DNA of 64,000 nucleotides from Candidatus Nomurabacteria bacterium (GTDB lineage Bacteria; Patescibacteriota; Minisyncoccia; Phycocordibacterales; UBA918), in NCBI GenBank assembly GCA_023898585.1, contig CP060229.1, forward strand, positions 726,587 to 790,586. Direction: 5' to 3'. The position numbers and the translations under genes are program-made. The notes under the pieces were generated by a model that saw nothing but the letters and a program-made list of their open reading frames with translations, was not told the DNA's origin and ran no database searches. Numbering within the stretch: the first letter of the stretch is position 1; every line of letters begins with the position of its first letter. Of this stretch, positions 54,793 through 64,000 are shown piece after piece.

Positions 54793-56217
54793 TTAATATT
54801 CCTCGACGAACTTTATTAACAGCCGTACCGGCTCCCCGGTTGCTCCCTTGGCTAACTTGTCATGAGGGATGCTGGACATACGTGGTGCTATATCAATATG
54901 TGCCCAAGGTTTTTTCTTTGGAGCAAAAAATGACAAAAATATCCCCCCTTCGATACATCCGGCATAGCGGGAAAAATTAACATCAATATTGCTGATGTCA
55001 GCCCTGTGACTTTTGAGCATAGTTTTGTACTCACACCAAAGCGGTAGTGGCCACGCCAAGTCACCAGTATCTTCACCGAGTGCTACGAGTTTTTCTTGTA
55101 GCTCAACATCTTTTGTTAGCACGGCCGAAGCATGCTGACCGAGGGCCACAATTGACGCTCCGGTTAACGTAGCGATATCGAGTATGACTCTTGGCGAATA
55201 GTATTTTTCGGCGTATGTCATAGCGTCAGCCAAGACCATCCTTCCTTCAGCGTCAGTATGGAGTATTTCAACAGTCTTTCCTGACATGCTGGTCGCAATA
55301 TCACCTGCTCTCATGCTGTCGCCTGAAATTGAATTCTCTGCAGTCGCTATCACCGCTATGACATTTTTTTTAACACCCAGTTTTGCGATTGCCCGCATGG
55401 CGCCAATCACGGACGCTCCGCCAGACATATCAAGGTGCATATCATGCATGAACCCGCTCGGTTTGACATTAAGACCCCCACTGTCATAAGTGATACCTTT
55501 TCCTATGAGCGCGATCGGTGCTTCCTCTTTGCCCTTTTTTGTCTTGCCTCTTCCCCAATATTCCAAGACAATCAAACGGGGCTTGTCGGTAGCTCCTTTC
55601 CCGACAGCTTCCAAAAGACCCATTTTTTCTTTTTTAATACCTGTGAAATCAAGAATTTTTACAGTTACTCCGGTTCCTTTCATTACGTCCTTGGCTGTTT
55701 TTGCCAACAAGCTTGGTGTCATGTGTTCCCCGGTTGTGTTGGCTATGTCGCGGGTGGTGTTGATGGTGTCTCCGACGGTGAGTCCGGTCGAAAAGCTTCG
55801 CTTTTCGACCGGACTCACGATTCCGCAAACCAAAATTTCCCTCAATTCTTTCTCGATTCTTTTCTCAGTTTTATATTTCCTGAACTCATATTGAGCCAGT
55901 TGCAGGTTTTCTGCTAGGGTTCGAAAAAACCACGTATCGCCTTTTTCTTCAATTTCAGGACTACCCATAGGACCAACTTGAATAGCGATGTATTCAAGTT
56001 GGTGCGCTTTGGCTGATTGAACAATTGTCCGCACCAAAGTTCGGAAGCTTCTTGGAGTGGCTTTTTTTCTTTTCCCCGCTCCCATACGGTATTCGAGATG
56101 ACCATCATCAGCTTCGACTAATCTGTGCCAACTCGGTTTGTCTTCTGTTAAGATAACCCGGCAATACTTTTTCGGAGTGTCAGATAAGGATTTATTGGTT
56201 GGTGTTATTTTAGTCAT
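54793..56217 (-). CDS. pepA: leucyl aminopeptidase (M17)
   Basis: NTDAEGRMVLADA signature and ~470 aa length. Confidence 0.9.
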   Translation of the reverse strand: MTKITPTNKSLSDTPKKYCRVILTEDKPSWHRLVEADDGHLEYRMGAGKRKKATPRSFRTLVRTIVQSAKAHQLEYIAIQVGPMGSPEIEEKGDTWFFRTLAENLQLAQYEFRKYKTEKRIEKELREILVCGIVSPVEKRSFSTGLTVGDTINTTRDIANTTGEHMTPSLLAKTAKDVMKGTGVTVKILDFTGIKKEKMGLLEAVGKGATDKPRLIVLEYWGRGKTKKGKEEAPIALIGKGITYDSGGLNVKPSGFMHDMHLDMSGGASVIGAMRAIAKLGVKKNVIAVIATAENSISGDSMRAGDIATSMSGKTVEILHTDAEGRMVLADAMTYAEKYYSPRVILDIATLTGASIVALGQHASAVLTKDVELQEKLVALGEDTGDLAWPLPLWCEYKTMLKSHRADISNIDVNFSRYAGCIEGGIFLSFFAPKKKPWAHIDIAPRMSSIPHDKLAKGATGEPVRLLIKFVEEY

Positions 56218-57607
56218 CTAAGTGTTTTTTAACTGATATACCCAATTCTATCAACTGTTCAATTTCAAGTGGTTTGGGAGCATTCATGACTGCAGTTTGT
56301 CCTCTTCTAGTCATTGGGAAAGCTTGTACTTCGCGCAGTGATTCCTCCCCGGTTAAATTCATAACGTTGCGTTCCACTCCAAGAGCGATACCACCGTGTG
56401 GGGGTGTCCCGTATCTAAATTCTTCAAGTATATGTCCGACCTTATCTTCGATTTGTTCGTCGGTATTACCCATTACTTTATATACGGCCTTGATAATTTC
56501 TCCTTTGTGAGCGCGGATACTTCCACCTCCGGCCTCAAATCCGTTGCATACTAAATCGTATTGAGAAGTTAGGATATTTTCGATATTTTCTCCTTTCATT
56601 AGATCCTCCAAAAACTCTTTTTTAGGCATCGAAAATGGGTTATGTGTGAAGGTCCATGTGCCCTTATCGGTTTTCTCGAAAAAGGGAAAATCCACCACCC
56701 AGGCATAAGCTAAAATTCGATTTTTCTTATCCTCTTCCGTTCGTAAATCGAATTTATCAGCCCCGTATTTAGCCATTGCTTCTTGATAAGTTATTACCGG
56801 AAAAGGTTTTTGTTTTATGGTGTAGCCCATTTTTTCAACCGCTGAAGTGACCATTTCTTCGATAACCTGCATAACATCTTCTCGTTCGACAAATGACATC
56901 TCGACGTCTATTTGAGTGTGTTCGTAACCTCGGTCAGCCCGCAAGTCTTCGTCGCGGATAGCCCGCGCAATCTGAACATATCGCTCGAAACCCGCGTTCA
57001 TCAGAAGTTGTTTGTACTGCTGAGGTGATTGCGGGAGTGCGTAAAATTTCCCCGGGTTATGTCGACTGGGAACAACAAAATCGCGTGAACCCTCGGGAGT
57101 CGATTCGGTCAATAGTGGGGTTTCAATTTCCACAAAATCGCGTTCCATTAAAAAGTCACGGCAACGTTTTACAAATTCACTGCGAACCCTGATGTTTTTT
57201 TGCATCCTTTCGGTACGCAAATCGATAGAACGGTGTTTAAGACGCACTTCCTCATCCTTGCCAAGTGAATCTTCAGTTACGTCGTAGGGTGGCGTTTCAG
57301 CCTCGTTAATAATAGTAATGCCAGTTATTTCGAGCTCGATATCACCATTTGTAACCCCCTCTTTTACCATTTTTGCCGGTCGCTCGTTGACAACACCGGT
57401 CATGCAAACTACGTACTCCGGCTTTAAAGTCTTGGCAATTTCAAGCACGTCAGGTTTGCCAAAAACAACTCCCTGCACTATTCCTGACCGGTCTCGGATG
57501 TCGAAAAAAGCCATTTTACCTTGATTTCTTTCAACGTGAATCCAGCCTTTGATTTGAACTTCTTTCCCTTTTTGTTCACCAAGTGAACCAATTAGTGTTC
57601 TTTGCAT
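56210..57607 (-). CDS. aspS: aspartate--tRNA ligase (class IIb, bacterial-type motifs, no GAD insertion)
   Basis: LPQSPQQYKQLLM and IRDEDLRADRGYEHTQIDVEMSF (AspRS motif 2), GGGSIR. 465 aa. Confidence 0.8.
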   Translation of the reverse strand: MQRTLIGSLGEQKGKEVQIKGWIHVERNQGKMAFFDIRDRSGIVQGVVFGKPDVLEIAKTLKPEYVVCMTGVVNERPAKMVKEGVTNGDIELEITGITIINEAETPPYDVTEDSLGKDEEVRLKHRSIDLRTERMQKNIRVRSEFVKRCRDFLMERDFVEIETPLLTESTPEGSRDFVVPSRHNPGKFYALPQSPQQYKQLLMNAGFERYVQIARAIRDEDLRADRGYEHTQIDVEMSFVEREDVMQVIEEMVTSAVEKMGYTIKQKPFPVITYQEAMAKYGADKFDLRTEEDKKNRILAYAWVVDFPFFEKTDKGTWTFTHNPFSMPKKEFLEDLMKGENIENILTSQYDLVCNGFEAGGGSIRAHKGEIIKAVYKVMGNTDEQIEDKVGHILEEFRYGTPPHGGIALGVERNVMNLTGEESLREVQAFPMTRRGQTAVMNAPKPLEIEQLIELGISVKKHLDD

Positions 57608-57918: not shown

Positions 57919-58963
57919 CCGAACACTTATTCTGCTAACTCGTCAGTCCCACTGGAGTGGTTTTTTTGATTCTAGCACACGTATGTTTTTTGAGTTCCCT
58001 AACCCATGTCTCTTTTGGTGTACGAAATCCAAGACACTTCATAAAGCGGGTACGCAGGTGCTGTTCTGCTTGCAAAATAACCTCTGGCGGTATCTGTGAA
58101 ATATCACACCCTTTTGGTACAAACTCACGTATACGGCCATTTCGGTTCTCGACCGTACCTTTCTCGGCTGAGTTGTACGGGTGTGTGAGGTACACCACCG
58201 CTTCAACCAGAGCTGATAGTTCCTCGTGCTTCTGAAAGGACAGGTCGTTATCGAGAGTAATGCTTCTGACCGGTATACCACCAAGACATCCGGCAATGAG
58301 GTCATTTACGGTGAGTGTCGTCCTGTTTTTAGTATAAATGATAAAGGGATATCGCGTCTTGCGCTCTACGAGTACCAGGAGTGATCCGTATCCAGCTTTG
58401 CCACTCTCAATGAAATCACCTTCAAAATGACCGAATTCTAGTCGTTCATTGGCTTTTCTTGATCGCTTTTCAATACTAACCTTGGTGGTGTCACCAGCTG
58501 CTTTTGTTCCTCTCTTTGGTCCGCCTTTGCGCTTTACCCGTTTGCGATACAGATGGTGTTCAAGTGGGCCGCCATGACTAGAGCCTATGAAGTGGTAGAT
58601 CGCCTTGGTACTTGCGTATTGTATGTGGGTATCTATTTCCCGCATCCTGCCTGATATACCTTCAGGTGACTGATCGTCTTCCAGTGCTTTAGTGACATAC
58701 TCTTTCAATATTGGATTCATTGCCACTTTAAGACACTTTTGTTTCGCTTGTTTCCTGCGTCGGTCTGCTTTTTTCTGTGCCCTGTCCGCCCGGTAGATTC
58801 CTCTCACACTACCGAGTCTGATCTCTTCACTTATCGTGCTTGGACTGCGATCTAATGCTCGTGCTATCCACCGCACGCCTTGTTTCTTTTTGAGATAGCG
58901 CGCAATACTTCTTCGCTCACAATACTCTAAATGATTCATCATTGTTCATCTTAGAGTGTTCGG
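57919..58963 (-). mobile_element. IS30-family insertion sequence (boundaries tentative)
   Basis: Contains an IS30-type transposase. Only a 9-bp inverted match (ccgaacact at 57919-57927, agtgttcgg at 58955-58963) lies at the expected ~1.05-kb spacing. Confidence 0.35.
57935..58942 (-). CDS. IS30-family DDE transposase
   Basis: N-terminal HTH (RRSIARYLKKKQGVRWIARALDRSPSTISEEI). DDE triad contexts GHFEGD, LDND, and YNSAEKGTVENRNGRIR. Confidence 0.85.
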   Translation of the reverse strand: MMNHLEYCERRSIARYLKKKQGVRWIARALDRSPSTISEEIRLGSVRGIYRADRAQKKADRRRKQAKQKCLKVAMNPILKEYVTKALEDDQSPEGISGRMREIDTHIQYASTKAIYHFIGSSHGGPLEHHLYRKRVKRKGGPKRGTKAAGDTTKVSIEKRSRKANERLEFGHFEGDFIESGKAGYGSLLVLVERKTRYPFIIYTKNRTTLTVNDLIAGCLGGIPVRSITLDNDLSFQKHEELSALVEAVVYLTHPYNSAEKGTVENRNGRIREFVPKGCDISQIPPEVILQAEQHLRTRFMKCLGFRTPKETWVRELKKHTCARIKKTTPVGLTS

Positions 58964-59104
58964 TTTCAAAGGTAAATTGGCAAGAGCATGTCTTCGAACT
59001 CACAATTTCAAGACGTCAAATCGAGGTATGTGAGACGTATATGGACATACGGTGAGCATACCGAGATGCAGACAACGCAGAAATTGGGGGTTTTGGAACA
59101 TGCT

Positions 59105-60049
59105 CTAGTCAATTCCGATAGCTTTCCTTACTGTAGCAAGTGTCTTTGAAGATACCGATTTAGCTTTTTCAGCCCCGCTTTTGAGCACTTCTTTTACATC
59201 TTCATCGGTGATTAATGAGCGCTTTTCCCGTAATGGCGAGATAAATTTTTCAATATCGGCAATGAGTAGCTTTTTTGAATCTCCGTATCGGCCTCTATTT
59301 TCATCATAAATCGATTCAAGTTCCTTCTCTTGTCTAAAAAGTTTGTGAATAGCGTAGACATTTTCCGGCCTTTCTCCCTGCGAGTCGGTCACTATACTCA
59401 TTACGGCTTTTTCAATCTCACTTGTAGTGCCGAAAAGTGGAATAGTGTTTTTGTAGCTCTTGCTCATTTTTTCCCCATCTGTCCCGGGAATAATCCCGAC
59501 GCTTTTGAGAATCATTTCTTGTGGAGCTTTCAAAGTCTCACCAAATGTCCGGTTAAATTTTCCCACCGCTTCTCTCGTGTATTCTATGTGTTGGCGCTGA
59601 TCTTCACCAACTGGGACGAGGTCGGTGTTGTACAAAACAATATCGGACGCCTGCAACATGGGGTATGTAAACAGTCCCACGTTTGGTTCCAATTCTTTAG
59701 CCAGTTTGTCTTTGTACGAATGAGCTTGCTGAAGAAACGGAACAGTCACCATACAGTTTAAAATCCACGCCAGTTCCATGTGGTCTTGATTGTCTGACTG
59801 ACGGAAAATCACGACTTTATCAGGATCAAGTCCAACTGCCAAGTAATCCCGCACTATATTTAGTGTATTTCTTCTGAGTGACTCGGGGTCTCGAAGGCTC
59901 GTCAAAGCATGGTAATCGGCCACCATAAGATAACTCTCATAATTTTCGTAGATATCTAAAAAAGGTTTTAGAGCACCAAAATAATTACCAATATGTAAAT
60001 TTCCTGATGGTTGCAAGCCTGTGAGCAGACGTTTTATTTCTGTAGACAT
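59105..60049 (-). CDS. trpS: tryptophan--tRNA ligase
   Basis: TGLQPSGNLHIGNYFGA (HIGH-type) and KMSKS. Confidence 0.9.
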   Translation of the reverse strand: MSTEIKRLLTGLQPSGNLHIGNYFGALKPFLDIYENYESYLMVADYHALTSLRDPESLRRNTLNIVRDYLAVGLDPDKVVIFRQSDNQDHMELAWILNCMVTVPFLQQAHSYKDKLAKELEPNVGLFTYPMLQASDIVLYNTDLVPVGEDQRQHIEYTREAVGKFNRTFGETLKAPQEMILKSVGIIPGTDGEKMSKSYKNTIPLFGTTSEIEKAVMSIVTDSQGERPENVYAIHKLFRQEKELESIYDENRGRYGDSKKLLIADIEKFISPLREKRSLITDEDVKEVLKSGAEKAKSVSSKTLATVRKAIGID

Positions 60050-60089
60050 AGAGCAATACTACCAGAAAAAATTCGAAGGACAATTTGAC

Positions 60090-61616
60090 TTAAAGAGCTA
60101 GTGGTAGTTCTAGTGTAAATACCGAACCTTTGTTTTTTCCTTCGGAACTGGCAGTTATTTTTCCACCCATCGCTTCGGCCATTTTTAAAGCTACATACAA
60201 GCCGAGTCCCGTACCATTTACATTGACCGAATTGGCGTTTTCGGCTCTCTCGAATTTTTGGAAGATTGTCGCTTGGTCGGTTTTGCTTATTCCTATGCCG
60301 GTGTCAATTATATCGACGTAAATACGCTTTCTTTTAATATCGTCCCTAACCAAAACCTTAATCGTTCCTTTTTCTGTGTACTTGATGGAATTGTTTATCA
60401 AGTTTTGAATAATCTGAATAGTTTTACCAAGATCGGCGTTAACCACACCGCGACTGTTTAATTCAGTTCTGAAGATCAGTGCCAGACCATTTTTAACAGC
60501 GTCAGAACGTAAATCATCACATACATCCTCGGTCTTATCAGCAAGATTAAAATCAGTCAGATTGTATTTCATATTGCCTGATTCAATTCTAGAAACATTC
60601 AAATAATCTTCTATCGCAATAGCCATTAATTTTGATGACTCTTCAATCCTTTCAATCGGTTGTCGTGCTTTCGCGGAAATCTTTCCGTAACTACCTTCAA
60701 GCATCAAAGAAGCATAACCACGGATCGCTGTTAAAGGACTACGCAGTTGATGGGAAGCGATGGACACAAACTCTGATTTTTGTTTATCGAGTGCTTGTAG
60801 TCGCAAGTTGGCTTTTTCTAGTTTTTCTGCCGATTCTTCTATGGATTTGGAATACGTTCTCGATGTGTACGCTATAGCGAAGGTCAGTAGAGCGATTACG
60901 GCGACCAGGAATAAAATAAAGACGATAAAAGGTCTGAGCGTTTGAGTAGTTATTGTAAAAAAATCATCAGCCTTAATGTCCGTAGCTAAAATAGCAACCA
61001 CGTTTCTCTCGTCATCGTATATGGGAGCATAACCGGTAAGGACCGTTCCGTATTCATCGGTGTACAACTCCACGCTTGTTAATGGTCCAAAATATGCATT
61101 AAAAGCTTCCGGTATGTCAACCGCTTCAGGGTATGGTTGACCCGGCCATTGTAGTTTGTCTGGCCCTTCGGGTTCAATTATTCCGTCTCTGTTAACATCC
61201 ACAAGCCAAGTCCCCTCTTCTCCCGAATTAGCGTAGGGATTTATTGAGTCGGCGTCCGCGACAAACTCCATTTGTGTAGCGTCATTTTCCGTTTTACGGA
61301 AGATATACATGAAGACAACGTCATCATTGTCGTACTTTGCTCTGTTTAGGGTATTTACAACGCGAGCCCAGGCGGGATTTCTCCAGTCTCCCTCGACTCT
61401 GAGTTGGTCTAAGTCAGAGGCGGAAATACTGCTGGCCGCGGTGATAGAAATAGTCAACAATCTCTGTCTCAAGTTCTCCGTCAGTAGATCTACTGTCTGG
61501 TTGTATAGAATTCTAGAAGACAAGACGATGATTATTAGCGTAGCTACAAACACGAACATCCCAAACCACACCGGCCGTGTCGCTTGAGAAGCAAAAAAAC
61601 TTTTTTTAATGTTCAT
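60090..61616 (-). CDS. sensor histidine kinase with periplasmic sensor domain
   Basis: Two TM helices flanking a ~180-aa extracytoplasmic domain. H-box SHQLRSPLTAIRGYASLM, N-box, G-box GTGLGLYVA. Confidence 0.85.
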   Translation of the reverse strand: MNIKKSFFASQATRPVWFGMFVFVATLIIIVLSSRILYNQTVDLLTENLRQRLLTISITAASSISASDLDQLRVEGDWRNPAWARVVNTLNRAKYDNDDVVFMYIFRKTENDATQMEFVADADSINPYANSGEEGTWLVDVNRDGIIEPEGPDKLQWPGQPYPEAVDIPEAFNAYFGPLTSVELYTDEYGTVLTGYAPIYDDERNVVAILATDIKADDFFTITTQTLRPFIVFILFLVAVIALLTFAIAYTSRTYSKSIEESAEKLEKANLRLQALDKQKSEFVSIASHQLRSPLTAIRGYASLMLEGSYGKISAKARQPIERIEESSKLMAIAIEDYLNVSRIESGNMKYNLTDFNLADKTEDVCDDLRSDAVKNGLALIFRTELNSRGVVNADLGKTIQIIQNLINNSIKYTEKGTIKVLVRDDIKRKRIYVDIIDTGIGISKTDQATIFQKFERAENANSVNVNGTGLGLYVALKMAEAMGGKITASSEGKNKGSVFTLELPLAL

Positions 61617-61644
61617 TTTCTATAACATTCTACAACACATTACC

Positions 61645-63456
61645 TCATACATCGATTAACTTGTCCACGTGTCCTACTTCCACCTCCCACAAGAAAGGAA
61701 TCAGTCTCGGTCCTCTGTCTTTGTTGAAAAGTAGCTTGTACAACGTCTTAAAGAAAACAAATTGATAAACCAAGTTTTCTTTTTTGGTGGAATTATCTTT
61801 TTTGGGTATTGCGTACACACTGTTTTTAAAATCCTCGTATTTAAATGTCTCTCTCTTTATAATCAACTCCTTCAGTTCCATTACTTGCTTGATTTCGCTC
61901 GGTGATAGATCGGTAATTGCTTCAATATTCGGCGAGTGTAACAGGGTGTGTACTTTTTCTTGATCGATTTTGATAAACTTCCGATCAGCGTTTATCTTAT
62001 CGGTTTCTATAAAAAAATGTCTCCCTGTTTCGCGCCTATTGTTATCTTCTTCGCAAGATCGACAAATATTTTGTAGCTTTAAGATTTTCTCTACGTTTTT
62101 AGGAATAATTTTGGTTAATTTTTTTCTGTTCGAAATATGTTTTGCCAGAGTACCGTTTTTTTGCTTCTTGAGGATTAGGTGTTCGTAAATATCTCTTTGC
62201 GGTAATGTGGGCTTAGCTATGATTTTGCCGTTGATGCTTAGATTTGAAGCACCGATTCCATTGCCTCCGTACTGCTTTGTTCCTCTTTCCACACCTGGTT
62301 CGTGCAGATGTTTATTGTGTAGAAATGTTTCGTCCGTATGAAGAACTACATCATCAATTTTTTTATTTATTAGCCCTTTCACATACTCGCTTTCACCGTA
62401 TAGTGTTATGTACATGGCGTGGTCTTGGTATTCTTTTGTCTCAAAGTAACTAGCTAGATTCTCGTCCTTTTCGTATTTTTGTATAAATAGTATGGGAGCG
62501 AACATTTCTTCATAATTTCCTCCTCGTGAAAGTGGTTTCTGTATTACAGTTGGTTCGACCACAGAACTGTAGGTTCTTATCACCCCGGGAGTATCTTTAT
62601 GAAGGTAGTCTCTGTTTTTTACAAAAACAGATTGAACTCGGGGTAGGTCATCAGGATTGCTTATAGGACCGACTCTACAAGATTTATAGTCAAAATTTCC
62701 GGCATTAACTAACTTTAGTTTGTCTGTAAGTTTGTGCACAAAGTCCTCAAATATGTTTTCGTGCACCAATATCGAATTTGGTGCAGCACAGTCTTGTCCT
62801 TGATTATATAAGGTGAGAGTTAAGGTTGCGTCGACTGCTTTTGCAAGGTTCGTAGCATCAGCGACTATTATTGGGTTGTGTCCTGCTCCGTTGGTTATGA
62901 AAAGCGTTCTTTTGTCAAAAACCAATCTCAATTGCTCGGCGTGTTTGGGAGTTCCGGTAAAAATAACCGCTTCTGTGAGCGGAAGGGTTTCTCCGGTCGC
63001 TGGGTTTGATAACAAAACTGACCTTTCTTTGAGAAACTCCAGCCGGCCTTTCTCGGAAGCGTTGATGTTGGGGAATGTATTGGTAATGTCCAAGATCTTG
63101 AAAACTTTTGGCAGTAGATTTTTCGTACTCTCTGGTATTCTGAAGTGGACCGCACTCGACATAAGGGAAGGAATTATGACAAAACACGTAAAGGAATAGA
63201 GTGGCTGATTACGAGGTAGAAAAACCGTTATTTCGCCCACCCTGTAATCAAAATACTCTCTGTTTTCATGAAGGTTCTCAAGTAGATCCAGAGTTCTCCC
63301 GATTTCGTCATCGACCACTTCGAAACTTTCGTATTGAATCAGGACGTCTTTCAGTTTGTCCAGATTTAATCTGATTTTGTTTGCAAGCTCCTTAGCTGTT
63401 ACATCAATTTCGTTGAATTGTATAGGTGAATACGCACTTTTCTTCATATTTAACAT
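61645..63456 (-). CDS. ALDH-superfamily protein (catalytic Cys retained, general-base Glu absent) fused to an uncharacterised ~170-aa C-terminal domain
   Basis: FLPRNQPLYSF...IIPSLMSSAVHFRIPESTK (corresponds to PWNFP...KPSE), FTGTPKHA, ITNGAGHNPIIVADATN (versus ELGGKSP...DDAD), NQGQDCAAPNSILV (catalytic Cys). The C-terminal part has CRSC and HTLLHSP with no family match. Confidence 0.55.
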   Translation of the reverse strand: MLNMKKSAYSPIQFNEIDVTAKELANKIRLNLDKLKDVLIQYESFEVVDDEIGRTLDLLENLHENREYFDYRVGEITVFLPRNQPLYSFTCFVIIPSLMSSAVHFRIPESTKNLLPKVFKILDITNTFPNINASEKGRLEFLKERSVLLSNPATGETLPLTEAVIFTGTPKHAEQLRLVFDKRTLFITNGAGHNPIIVADATNLAKAVDATLTLTLYNQGQDCAAPNSILVHENIFEDFVHKLTDKLKLVNAGNFDYKSCRVGPISNPDDLPRVQSVFVKNRDYLHKDTPGVIRTYSSVVEPTVIQKPLSRGGNYEEMFAPILFIQKYEKDENLASYFETKEYQDHAMYITLYGESEYVKGLINKKIDDVVLHTDETFLHNKHLHEPGVERGTKQYGGNGIGASNLSINGKIIAKPTLPQRDIYEHLILKKQKNGTLAKHISNRKKLTKIIPKNVEKILKLQNICRSCEEDNNRRETGRHFFIETDKINADRKFIKIDQEKVHTLLHSPNIEAITDLSPSEIKQVMELKELIIKRETFKYEDFKNSVYAIPKKDNSTKKENLVYQFVFFKTLYKLLFNKDRGPRLIPFLWEVEVGHVDKLIDV

Positions 63457-63524
63457 GTATATTCGCTCTCAATCAGCTTTTTTAATTAATAAAAAATATT
63501 TGTTTACACAAAATTATTGTACGA

Positions 63525-63561
63525 ATTAGCCCTTAAATTTTATATAAATTTAAGAGCTAAT
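63525..63561. promoter_or_regulatory. 16-bp imperfect palindrome centred on TATATA
   Basis: attagcccttaaattt-tatata-aatttaagagctaat. Located 70-105 bp upstream of the ALDH-fusion/HK operon start and ~100 bp downstream of the preceding - strand gene. Confidence 0.4.
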
Positions 63562-63658
63562 TTATGTGACTGATTAATAATGTAACAAGGTGTGTATCAC
63601 AGGTCGCGATAGGTTATGATTGTACCACGAAAGATTTAATTGCACCTGAACATCATAT

Positions 63659-64000
63659 CTAAACCACGTACAGGATGACTAATGGCACCAATAGCCACCA
63701 GAAAAAATAAACTTCAGGGCCGAAAAGTAATTGCAGGGGTGTGCCCGGAGTAAGAAATTCAGAAACCGGCAAAACATGAAAACTGTAAATCATGACTATG
63801 ATGGTTGCCCCGGTTGCTAGTAGTATTTTTTTACCCATGCTCTCGAAACGGTTTTCTCTGAATTCGCTTGGCATAATGCGATAAAAGAGCATGGTAGTAA
63901 GAAATGTTATGAAACAGAAGAATACTAATTTAGCTCCAGCTATAGATTGTTCAGTTTCAAGACCACCAAACAACTTGTCGTAGCCTGGGAACTCTATCGA
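63659..64000 (-). CDS. polytopic membrane protein, C-terminal part (gene continues beyond window end)
   Basis: The reading frame is open to position 64000 (…SIEFPGYDKLFGGLETEQ…). The track's start at 63973 is a TTG. Three TM helices. Confidence 0.4.
   Translation of the reverse strand, partial: SIEFPGYDKLFGGLETEQSIAGAKLVFFCFITFLTTMLFYRIMPSEFRENRFESMGKKILLATGATIIVMIYSFHVLPVSEFLTPGTPLQLLFGPEVYFFWWLLVPLVILYVV

Follow-up and report, generated by a model that had tools for sequence, protein, structure and literature searches.

The 64-kb stretch of Candidatus Nomurabacteria bacterium DNA analysed here (contig CP060229.1; "the window" in the following) encodes a protein of 603 residues in which a catalytic domain of the aldehyde dehydrogenase (ALDH) fold is followed by a linker and by an α-helix-cage domain resembling the anticodon-binding domain of class I lysyl-tRNA synthetase (LysRS-I). 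Its gene is paired with that of a membrane-bound sensor histidine kinase. We tentatively propose that the protein is a Lys-tRNA(Lys)-dependent NAD(P)H reductase which makes lysine aldehyde and forms a functional module with the kinase. The weaker statement, that the substrate is lysine either linked to tRNA(Lys) or activated by LysRS, is probably correct, as judged from domain homologies and fusion patterns. Every part of the system is known; neither their combination nor the predicted activity has been described in the literature searched. The enzyme gene and its parts are:

61645..63456 (stop codon included), minus strand: ALDH-linker-cage gene, 603 aa (open reading frame (ORF); full-length homologues with 46-53% identity; AlphaFold2 model)
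62167..63456, minus strand: ALDH-fold catalytic domain, residues 1-430 (Pfam Aldedh, Foldseek, invariant residues)
63208-63210, minus strand: codon of Asn83, oxyanion hole (PRNQP motif)
62890-62892, minus strand: codon of Asn189, in place of the general-base Glu (PDB alignments)
62788-62790, minus strand: codon of Cys223, nucleophile (PDB alignments)
Glu317/Phe319, minus strand: predicted nicotinamide-ribose site of the ALDH domain (invariant E317-x-F319)
61942..62166, minus strand: linker, residues 431-505 (helices and a small β-sheet; pLDDT 64-96 in the full model)
61648..61941, minus strand: C-terminal α-helix-cage domain, residues 506-603 (homologue of the anticodon-binding domain in class I LysRS)

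An ALDH domain without the general base

The 603-residue protein is a member of the ALDH superfamily and not a hydrolytic ALDH. The Pfam profile Aldedh (PF00171) matches residues 160-343 with its positions 205-394 (84.4 bits versus a cutoff of 23, E 8e-24), and the scores of the NCBIfam equivalog models are all far below their cutoffs. In the AlphaFold2 model of the full-length chain (mean pLDDT 93.9, pTM 0.91), the ALDH part finds ordinary ALDHs as top Foldseek matches, with 13-19% identity, TM-scores of 0.6-0.7 and an E-value of 1e-17 over ca. 430-470 columns. The active site is outlined by the motifs PRNQP (81-85), TNGAG (188-192), NQGQDC (218-223) and EEMFAP (316-321). Cys223 lies opposite the catalytic Cys and Asn189 opposite the general-base Glu in both of the two printed alignments to solved ALDHs, and Asn83 was assigned to the oxyanion hole by the correspondence of PRNQP to the PWNFP motif, without a printed alignment. 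Two elements of the ALDH signature given in the initial annotation, a PWNFP equivalent and the Cys in NQGQDC, are thereby retained. The third, GxTxxG, is not literally present in the protein; the equivalent stretch reads F166-T-G168-T-P-K-H172-A173, so that the GSTxxG-type turn is replaced by FTG168T..H172A173 and the second Gly of the motif by Ala.

Among 120 homologues the residues N83, N189, H193, N194, D222, C223, E317, F319, H385, E390 and Y396 are conserved, with N83, N189, C223 and E317-x-F319 invariant, and R421 is near-invariant. This set, from N83 to R421, varies little or not at all throughout the four architecture classes described below and across three phyla, which indicates a shared chemistry and argues that the ALDH domain is not a pseudoenzyme. 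The ELGG motif with its general-base Glu, the mark of hydrolytic ALDHs, is missing, and Asn is invariant in this position across all classes. The replacement of the Glu (TNGAG) and the likeness to acylating or reductase-type enzymes had both been recognized in the initial annotation and are borne out, as the Cys and the oxyanion Asn are kept and the general base is exchanged. The pattern fits acylating or reductase-type chemistry, in which the acyl donor or acceptor would be other than water.

A C-terminal domain of the class I lysyl-tRNA synthetase type

Residues ca. 506-603 can be assigned, by sequence and model comparison, to the anticodon-binding-type α-helix-cage domain of class I LysRS, and a contact with tRNA is predicted for them. 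The α-helical cage subdomain is the anticodon-binding part of bacterial glutamyl-tRNA synthetase (GluRS) and LysRS-I (PMC12088422). With a single query sequence, phmmer relates the last ca. 95 residues to the C-terminal domain of the Pyrococcus horikoshii class I LysRS (1IRX) at E 9e-5, and a profile built from 24 tail sequences matches 1IRX residues 444-517 at E 5e-9. When the AlphaFold model of the tail was compared by Foldseek, 1irx_A ranked first (99 columns, rmsd 2.9 Å, 26% identity), ahead of a series of bacterial GluRS structures. Moreover, residues ca. 495-603 can be aligned over their whole length with the C-terminal ends of Patescibacterial LysRS-I enzymes of the HFGN/KMSGS type and of the class 2 fusions introduced below, including the terminal LLDV/LLDI. 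Three residues of the cage, Y573, G582 and P583, show no variation among 120 homologues, and Q565, F568 and F569 hardly any, although the tail is overall only ca. 30% identical. The extension had at first been described as having no recognisable family, which is incorrect for its last ca. 95 residues; a match to a known domain had also been named as a finding that would refute the initial interpretation, and a class I LysRS cage in this place makes the protein more interesting, not less.

For the preceding linker (residues 431-505), no family match was obtained with Pfam or profile searches. It contains conserved K453, K457 and an R493-equivalent, carries a mean charge of +3.2 and is, together with the cage, net positive. 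Its structure is modelled well only when the ALDH domain is present, and with low confidence in the absence of that domain. Pfam searches at E-values up to 10 returned nothing meaningful for the tail or for the N-terminal 208 residues, and a match to the LINE-1 RBD at E 0.024 was taken as chance. The CRSC sequence (465-468), which had served as a landmark of the extension, is not conserved among the homologues, and a zinc site at this position was therefore rejected. PF01921 does not match the window protein, which has no Rossmann core and neither a HIGH nor a KMSKS motif; from its sequence it is therefore not itself a LysRS and should be unable to charge tRNA.

The fusion is genuine. A search of 5.8 billion proteins gave 436 matches, of which the best 120 have a length of 587-651 residues, cover 98-100% of the query and are 46-53% identical to it. 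Where sources are named among these 120, they are Parcubacteria, Paceibacteria, Uhrbacteria and similar Patescibacteria, and their database labels alternate between "aldehyde dehydrogenase family protein" and "lysyl-tRNA synthetase class I". At least 120 full-length homologues of the same architecture refute a frameshift artefact and settle the alternative of mis-joined genes, which the initial annotation had kept in view, in favour of a real fusion.

Fusions of the ALDH clade to lysyl-tRNA synthetases of both classes

Scanning a single genome for each species, we obtained 80 loci (L numbers) and sorted them into four architectures with profile searches run locally on their ORFs. Class 1, to which the window protein belongs, comprises the ALDH-linker-cage proteins of ca. 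600-645 residues from Patescibacteria. Class 2, likewise from Patescibacteria, consists of an ALDH fused N-terminally to a complete LysRS-I (977-1117 aa; L048, L049, L050, L055, L056, L069), and in the Patescibacterial locus L057 an ALDH gene is followed by a separate LysRS-I gene. The order is reversed in class 3, where LysRS-I precedes the ALDH in proteins of 938-984 residues from Pseudomonas, Photorhabdus, Xenorhabdus, Brenneria and Saccharothrix, and where LysRS-I and ALDH are encoded by adjacent genes in Streptosporangium, Kibdelosporangium and Crossiella. Class 4 contains ALDH only, some of its members being cut by contig ends or frameshifts.

The synthetase parts are largely intact in their signature motifs. 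Both PSGxVHFGN and KMSGS are present in the class 2 proteins L049, L050 and L069 and in the separate LysRS of L057; L055 and L056 keep the first signature and have a variant KMSKS region, and L048 is degenerate in both. All five class 3 sequences aligned contain PHIGT and KISKS. Pfam recognizes tRNA-synt_1f and Aldedh in the class 3 fusions, and the NCBIfam model of bacterial LysRS-I matches them over its full length with scores below the cutoff, which marks their synthetase part as a paralogue. The γ-proteobacteria of class 3 use a class II LysRS for translation. Class 3 occurs in cultured hosts (L085 3381-6269; L066 3288-6203; L060, L061, L064, L065, L068, L071, L074, L075, L077-L079, L081, L084, L086, L087), and the only RefSeq label of the LysRS-ALDH fusions in Pseudomonas, Photorhabdus, Xenorhabdus and Saccharothrix is "aldehyde dehydrogenase family protein".

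The ALDH clade is small, as only 212 representatives were found at E ≤ 1e-30 in a HMMER search of 1.84 billion. More distant members, with 32-36% identity, are fused to an OB anticodon-binding domain and a class II synthetase core. In one of them (P0225), the partner matches lysine--tRNA ligase at E 3e-61 over positions 4-469 of 488 versus aspartyl-tRNA synthetase at 7e-9. Such combinations of ALDH and class II LysRS, consisting of the OB domain with or without the core, were seen in P0225, P0242 and P0262 (metagenomic sequences; L088 4269-6938), and this link is independent of that to class I. One clade is thus fused to both unrelated LysRS classes, and to class I in both orders, which suggests a function involving activated lysine or tRNA(Lys); we regard this pattern, in sequence terms, as the strongest single argument of the analysis. 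Other members of the clade (P0230, P0236, P0249, P0254, P0256, P0252; P0277, P0233; P0255) are fused to Pol-beta-type nucleotidyltransferases, to pyridoxal phosphate (PLP) enzymes of PF00155 or to an AstE/AspA-type deacylase, and one of the nucleotidyltransferase fusions also carries ankyrin repeats. Nothing informative emerged from the genomic contexts of the distant ALDH-nucleotidyltransferase, ALDH-aminotransferase and ALDH-class II LysRS proteins. We found neither a curated family or name for the clade nor, in literature searches, a published description of it; two candidate papers (PMC2922099 and PMC13149037) turned out to concern MetRS-like, cyclodipeptide synthase and tRNA-deacylase systems.

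The architecture of the window protein presumably arose from an ALDH-LysRS-I fusion by loss of the synthetase core. This origin is suggested by the end-to-end alignment of the tails together with a rough midpoint-rooted neighbour-joining tree of the ALDH domains, in which class 2 is basal in the Patescibacterial branch and class 1 is nested as a derived group. Patescibacteria have two types of class I LysRS, one with SGRVHIGS/KMSSS (L001 3604-5169) and one with PSGxVHFGN/KMSGS (L047 960-2525, L057 6311-8035). Only the latter type is found fused or adjacent to the ALDH, and it is the apparent donor of the tail. Class 1 genomes keep a separate LysRS-I, which lies a few kb from the module in L001 and L047. 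As only the tRNA-recognition domain was kept after the core had been lost, the tRNA itself seems to be needed.

The partner kinase

Gene order was read from the ORF list of the window. The three genes described in the initial annotation lie in the places given there, all on the minus strand; the kinase ORF begins 28 nt past the ALDH stop codon and trpS 40 nt past that of the kinase. The kinase and its parts are:

60090..61616, minus strand: sensor histidine kinase, 508 aa (Pfam, transmembrane (TM) prediction, H-box, adjacency in related loci)
within it: TM1, residues ca. 12-40; extracytoplasmic sensor domain, ca. 41-221 (nt 60954-61496); TM2, ca. 222-253; HisKA, 279-347; HATPase_c, 400-507

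HisKA (PF00512, 56.4 bits) and HATPase_c (PF02518, 86.2 bits) are recognized, His289 lies in an SHQLRSPL H-box, and two TM segments surround an outside domain of ca. 180 residues, as expected for the sensor kinase with a periplasmic domain that had been described before. Among 43 distinct class 1 loci with enough downstream DNA, 37 have a homologous kinase adjacent to the enzyme gene, 35 of them downstream on the same strand and two divergently upstream. The gap between the two genes is between -59 and +95 nt in 34 of these 35, including overlapping stop and start codons, and 931 nt in the remaining one. The sensor domains of the paired kinases match that of the window kinase at E-values of 1e-68 to 1e-114. 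The pairing persists with different flanking genes (L003, L005) and with an inverted kinase (L025, L034) and is, because of these differing flanks, not mere inherited synteny; the earlier view of the kinase as part of the unit is strengthened by this recurrence. The kinase is apparently part of the same operon as the enzyme gene. Class 2 and class 3 loci are without such a kinase.

The sensor domain of the window kinase matched no Cache-family or other profile and no PDB sequence. It is homologous to the outside domain of large winged helix-turn-helix (wHTH; TrmB/MarR-like) proteins which adjoin the module in several loci and which give only sub-threshold matches to dCache_1, MCP-like_PDC and Cache_3-Cache_2. 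These proteins of 589-1016 residues, with a winged helix at the N-terminus and the sensor-like domain at the C-terminus (L012 1299-4328; L034 6820-9870; L046 846-3017; L030 2733-4502; L025 6968-9127; L053), look, from their domain composition, like membrane-bound one-component regulators sharing the ligand domain of the kinase. In the window kinase, a stretch within residues ca. 120-150, DVNRDGIIEPEG, resembles a DxNxDG calcium-binding loop and is placed inside an acidic-rich insertion.

None of the window ORFs of at least 70 residues codes for a receiver domain, another kinase or a LysRS, in agreement with the earlier statement that no response regulator is adjacent. In other loci, single-domain receivers follow the kinase (L042, L052; PF00072) or are found nearby (L013, L043, L044, L045). 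These CheY-like proteins of 122-141 residues (L042 8304-8681; L052 8341-9121; L043 4175-4600; L044 7723-8091; L045 2465-2833; L013 216-590) occur in a minority of lineages and are candidates for the kinase partner that is absent from the window. As to its role, the kinase may respond to a ligand outside the cell and regulate the operon accordingly or, more speculatively, may detect an exported product of the enzyme.

Genomic surroundings of the module

The remaining features around the module are:

59105..60049, minus strand: trpS, tryptophan--tRNA ligase, 314 aa (TIGR00233, 288 bits versus a cutoff of 177; Pfam tRNA-synt_1b)
63524..63562, strand not applicable: inverted repeat with 17-nt arms, 67 nt 5' of the start codon and ca. 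100 nt past the stop codon of the upstream gene
63659..63973, minus strand: upstream small membrane-protein ORF (ORF call; no Pfam match)

With trpS following the kinase in L003, L004, L006, L007, L028, L037 and L038, but not in L001 or L005, this gene is a frequent, not a constant, neighbour of the module. Between trpS and aspS (56210-57607) lies an IS30-like transposase ORF (57935-58942, minus strand; HTH_38 and a weak rve match), which looks like a recent insertion since trpS and aspS are adjacent or nearly so in L006 and L004. For the comparison of contigs, a cluster representative with 99.8% identity stood in for the window protein, and L007 is a near-identical contig. The upstream membrane-protein ORF probably starts beyond the end of the window, as its counterpart in L007 was called with 167 residues.

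The palindrome reported upstream of the enzyme gene is real and slightly longer than first described, with arms of 17 nt (63524-63540 and 63546-63562), one mismatch and a 5-nt spacer; as RNA it would fold with -19.1 kcal/mol (z -6.3). It is identical in the near-identical contig L007 and not conserved in sequence elsewhere, for which reason a conserved operator was rejected as a general explanation. At the same position, relatives have unrelated GC-rich hairpins with a T-run, and a promoter of the TTGACA type comes next, 60-70 nt ahead of the start codon. Because of these terminator hairpins, the AT-rich palindrome is most simply explained, and more likely, as the terminator hairpin of the upstream gene; a lineage-specific operator is less likely. 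Rfam gave no match in the window section 59000-64000, and the leader that follows the promoter-like site is short; both a riboswitch and a T-box were therefore rejected.

A four-TM protein of ca. 113-132 residues with only sub-threshold matches to the drug/metabolite transporter (DMT) clan (SMR, EamA, TMEM234) is encoded directly upstream of the enzyme gene in 15-17 of 42 Patescibacterial loci; the upstream membrane protein of the window is not homologous to this DMT/SMR-like protein. In the otherwise unrelated contexts of Pseudomonas and Xenorhabdus, the gene of a 385-residue transporter of the major facilitator superfamily (MFS) directly follows the fusion gene. Such neighbours fit, by gene context, an exported small product. 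Genes of tRNA-Lys were found near the module in two of 60 loci (two of the nine tRNA genes found there), namely L059 7790-7863, directly after the kinase, and L054 2408-2483, in both of which the ALDH has no detectable cage; they are too few to serve as evidence.

Proposed reaction and alternatives

Starting from the observed fold, conserved residues, domain homology, fusion patterns and gene pairing, we infer tRNA binding, substrate, reaction direction, product and kinase role from domains and fusion patterns and propose the following scenario: The cage domain inherited from class I LysRS would hold the anticodon arm of tRNA(Lys), which would be charged in trans by the separate class I LysRS of the cell. 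Cys223 might then attack the aminoacyl ester to form a lysyl-thioester, with Asn83 providing the oxyanion hole. As Asn189 replaces the water-activating Glu, the thioester would not be hydrolyzed but reduced by NAD(P)H to lysine aldehyde (2,6-diaminohexanal or a cyclic imine). The transmembrane kinase, with its putatively Cache-like sensor, would either regulate the enzyme gene or sense a related extracellular compound and would signal via a receiver encoded elsewhere. An aldehyde product would also fit, by analogy, the fusions of the clade to PF00155 aminotransferases, which parallel the pairing of glutamyl-tRNA reductase (GluTR) with glutamate-1-semialdehyde (GSA) aminomutase; this pairing and the mechanism of GluTR are described in PMC10144233. 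The "metabolic-signal sensing unit" of the initial annotation was too vague and missed the link to LysRS of both classes.

Several points weigh against a Lys-tRNA(Lys) reductase in this form. The modelled protein is compact (pTM 0.91) and may set the cage and Cys223 too close to each other for a tRNA, unless the tRNA spans an ALDH dimer. CoA- or phosphate-dependent chemistry would likewise be compatible with the missing general base, and an acyl carrier other than tRNA is possible. A lysine aldehyde has no evident use in a bacterium with a minimal genome, and tRNA-Lys genes are not systematically near the module (2/60 loci). As regards export and sensing, the DMT-like and Cache assignments are below the Pfam thresholds, the upstream membrane protein of the window is not the DMT-like one, and the link to the kinase could be regulatory only.

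Among the alternatives, a conventional or acylating ALDH whose substrate is a free aldehyde related to lysine, or a reductase of acyl-CoA or acyl-phosphate, appears unlikely; the cage would then be a structural leftover or a docking piece for LysRS. It is in line with this possibility that Pfam and NCBIfam see only generic ALDH similarity, that LuxC matches the Photorhabdus fusion weakly and that the compact AlphaFold2 model suggests a tail packed onto the enzyme; moreover, CoA-acylating and reductase-type relatives of the ALDHs likewise lack the general base. However, a mere leftover would hardly be kept constant, or almost so, at Y573, G582, P583, Q565, F568 and F569 across 120 sequences whose tails are ca. 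30% identical, and the separate fusions to both LysRS classes, with class I motifs intact in the majority of class 2 proteins and in each of the five class 3 proteins aligned, are hard to explain unless the product of the synthetase is used.

In the confident single-body model the anticodon-binding domain lies close against the catalytic domain, which would also suit an enzyme acting on tRNA(Lys) near the anticodon, such as in the redox chemistry of a modified base, or a reader of the charging state which passes its signal to the adjacent kinase like the HisRS-like domain of GCN2. The tight pairing with a signalling kinase and the single-domain receivers beside the module in L042, L052, L043, L044, L045 and L013 would agree with such a function. 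We nevertheless consider it quite improbable, because the same invariant active site is found in fusions with exporters in place of the kinase, because LysRS paralogues with intact catalytic motifs point to activated lysine rather than to the tRNA body alone, and because the kinase has an extracellular sensor domain of its own.

Thioester chemistry of ALDHs is reversible in principle, and the same residue pattern and tRNA-domain evidence would suit the reverse direction, in which an amino-aldehyde is oxidized with NAD(P)+ to the thioester and the acyl group is passed to the 3' end of tRNA(Lys), the tRNA taking the role of CoA in an ATP-independent charging reaction. This direction is very improbable: we know of no source of lysine aldehyde, the full fusions keep the ATP-dependent synthetase motifs, which would then be redundant, and the exporters beside the gene suggest a released small product. 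Finally, an artefact (two genes joined by a frameshift or a chance ORF, with a gene order of mere synteny) has a negligible probability, since the syntenic genes that several loci share on either side of the pair (trpS and aspS behind the kinase, dnaK-dnaJ ahead of the enzyme gene) are outweighed by the recurring full-length architecture, the confident single-chain model and a pairing that persists in differing surroundings.

An extension of the proposed lysine aldehyde synthesis, which we likewise regard as a rather improbable one, would make the enzyme-kinase pair a tRNA-dependent signalling circuit: Lys-tRNA(Lys) would be converted to a cationic lysine aldehyde or imine, exported via the upstream DMT-like or another membrane protein, and sensed outside by the Cache-like domain of the kinase and, in some lineages, by the wHTH-Cache regulators. 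Patescibacteria are commonly described as episymbiotic. If true, the circuit would represent a new class of autoinducer synthase in Patescibacteria, fed directly from the translation machinery, and the cassettes of LysRS-ALDH and MFS genes in Pseudomonas and Xenorhabdus would make a related exported metabolite.

The partner kinase is one of the few signalling systems visible in the Patescibacterial loci scanned. Pseudomonas, Photorhabdus and Xenorhabdus are culturable hosts with a self-contained LysRS-ALDH gene, often accompanied by an exporter, and thus offer a tractable model for the whole family; a function established there would carry over to the Patescibacterial gene (80 loci in the species-representative scan) and its conserved partner kinase. 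The present analysis also corrects the current annotation, in which these proteins are called either "aldehyde dehydrogenase family protein" or, in error, "lysyl-tRNA synthetase class I".

Comparison with known systems

The arrangement of enzyme and kinase genes recalls cqsA-cqsS, in which the gene of a small-molecule synthase stands beside that of a membrane histidine kinase and the response regulator is encoded elsewhere. The resemblance is one of analogy only, as there is no homology.

With the ALDH superfamily (PF00171), the window protein shares the fold, the catalytic Cys in NQGQxC, the oxyanion Asn in PxNxP, the ExF nicotinamide-ribose motif and, as its residues predict, covalent thioester chemistry. 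It differs from the known ALDHs in its low identity to any solved one (13-19%), in the Ala replacing the second Gly of GSTxxG, in the invariant Asp before the Cys and in the appended tRNA-synthetase domain. The missing general-base Glu is a feature in common with CoA-acylating ALDHs, the LuxC acyl-CoA reductases and the γ-glutamyl-phosphate reductase ProA; in contrast to the acylating enzymes, no CoA, phosphate or acyl carrier protein partner is evident for the window protein. Relative to class I LysRS (PF01921; 1IRX), the last ca. 95 residues are homologous to the C-terminal cage, down to the terminal LLDV of the Patescibacterial enzymes, whereas the Rossmann catalytic core, the HIGH and KMSKS motifs and a PF01921 match are absent.

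A precedent for the layout of the class 2 and class 3 relatives is LysX, in which a class II LysRS is fused to a consumer of Lys-tRNA, the lysyl-phosphatidylglycerol synthase MprF (PMC2922099). Unlike LysX, the putative consumer in the present case is an ALDH-fold oxidoreductase and not a GNAT-fold transferase, and the window protein keeps only the tRNA-recognition domain.

The closest parallel to the proposed chemistry, and to the chemistry only, is GluTR (HemA), whose Cys attacks the aminoacyl-tRNA ester and in which NADPH reduces the resulting thioester to an α-amino aldehyde (PMC10144233). GluTR draws its Glu-tRNA from a class I synthetase of the Glu/Lys-I lineage, and the fusion of some members of the ALDH clade to a PLP enzyme recalls its pairing with GSA aminomutase. 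However, the two proteins have unrelated folds and no sequence match; the system described here would act on lysine and would borrow tRNA recognition from the anticodon domain of a synthetase. If the proposal holds, lysine aldehyde chemistry would join the short list of non-ribosomal uses of aminoacyl-tRNA, and the ALDH-cage proteins, built independently on the ALDH fold, would be the only kind of aminoacyl-tRNA reductase besides GluTR.

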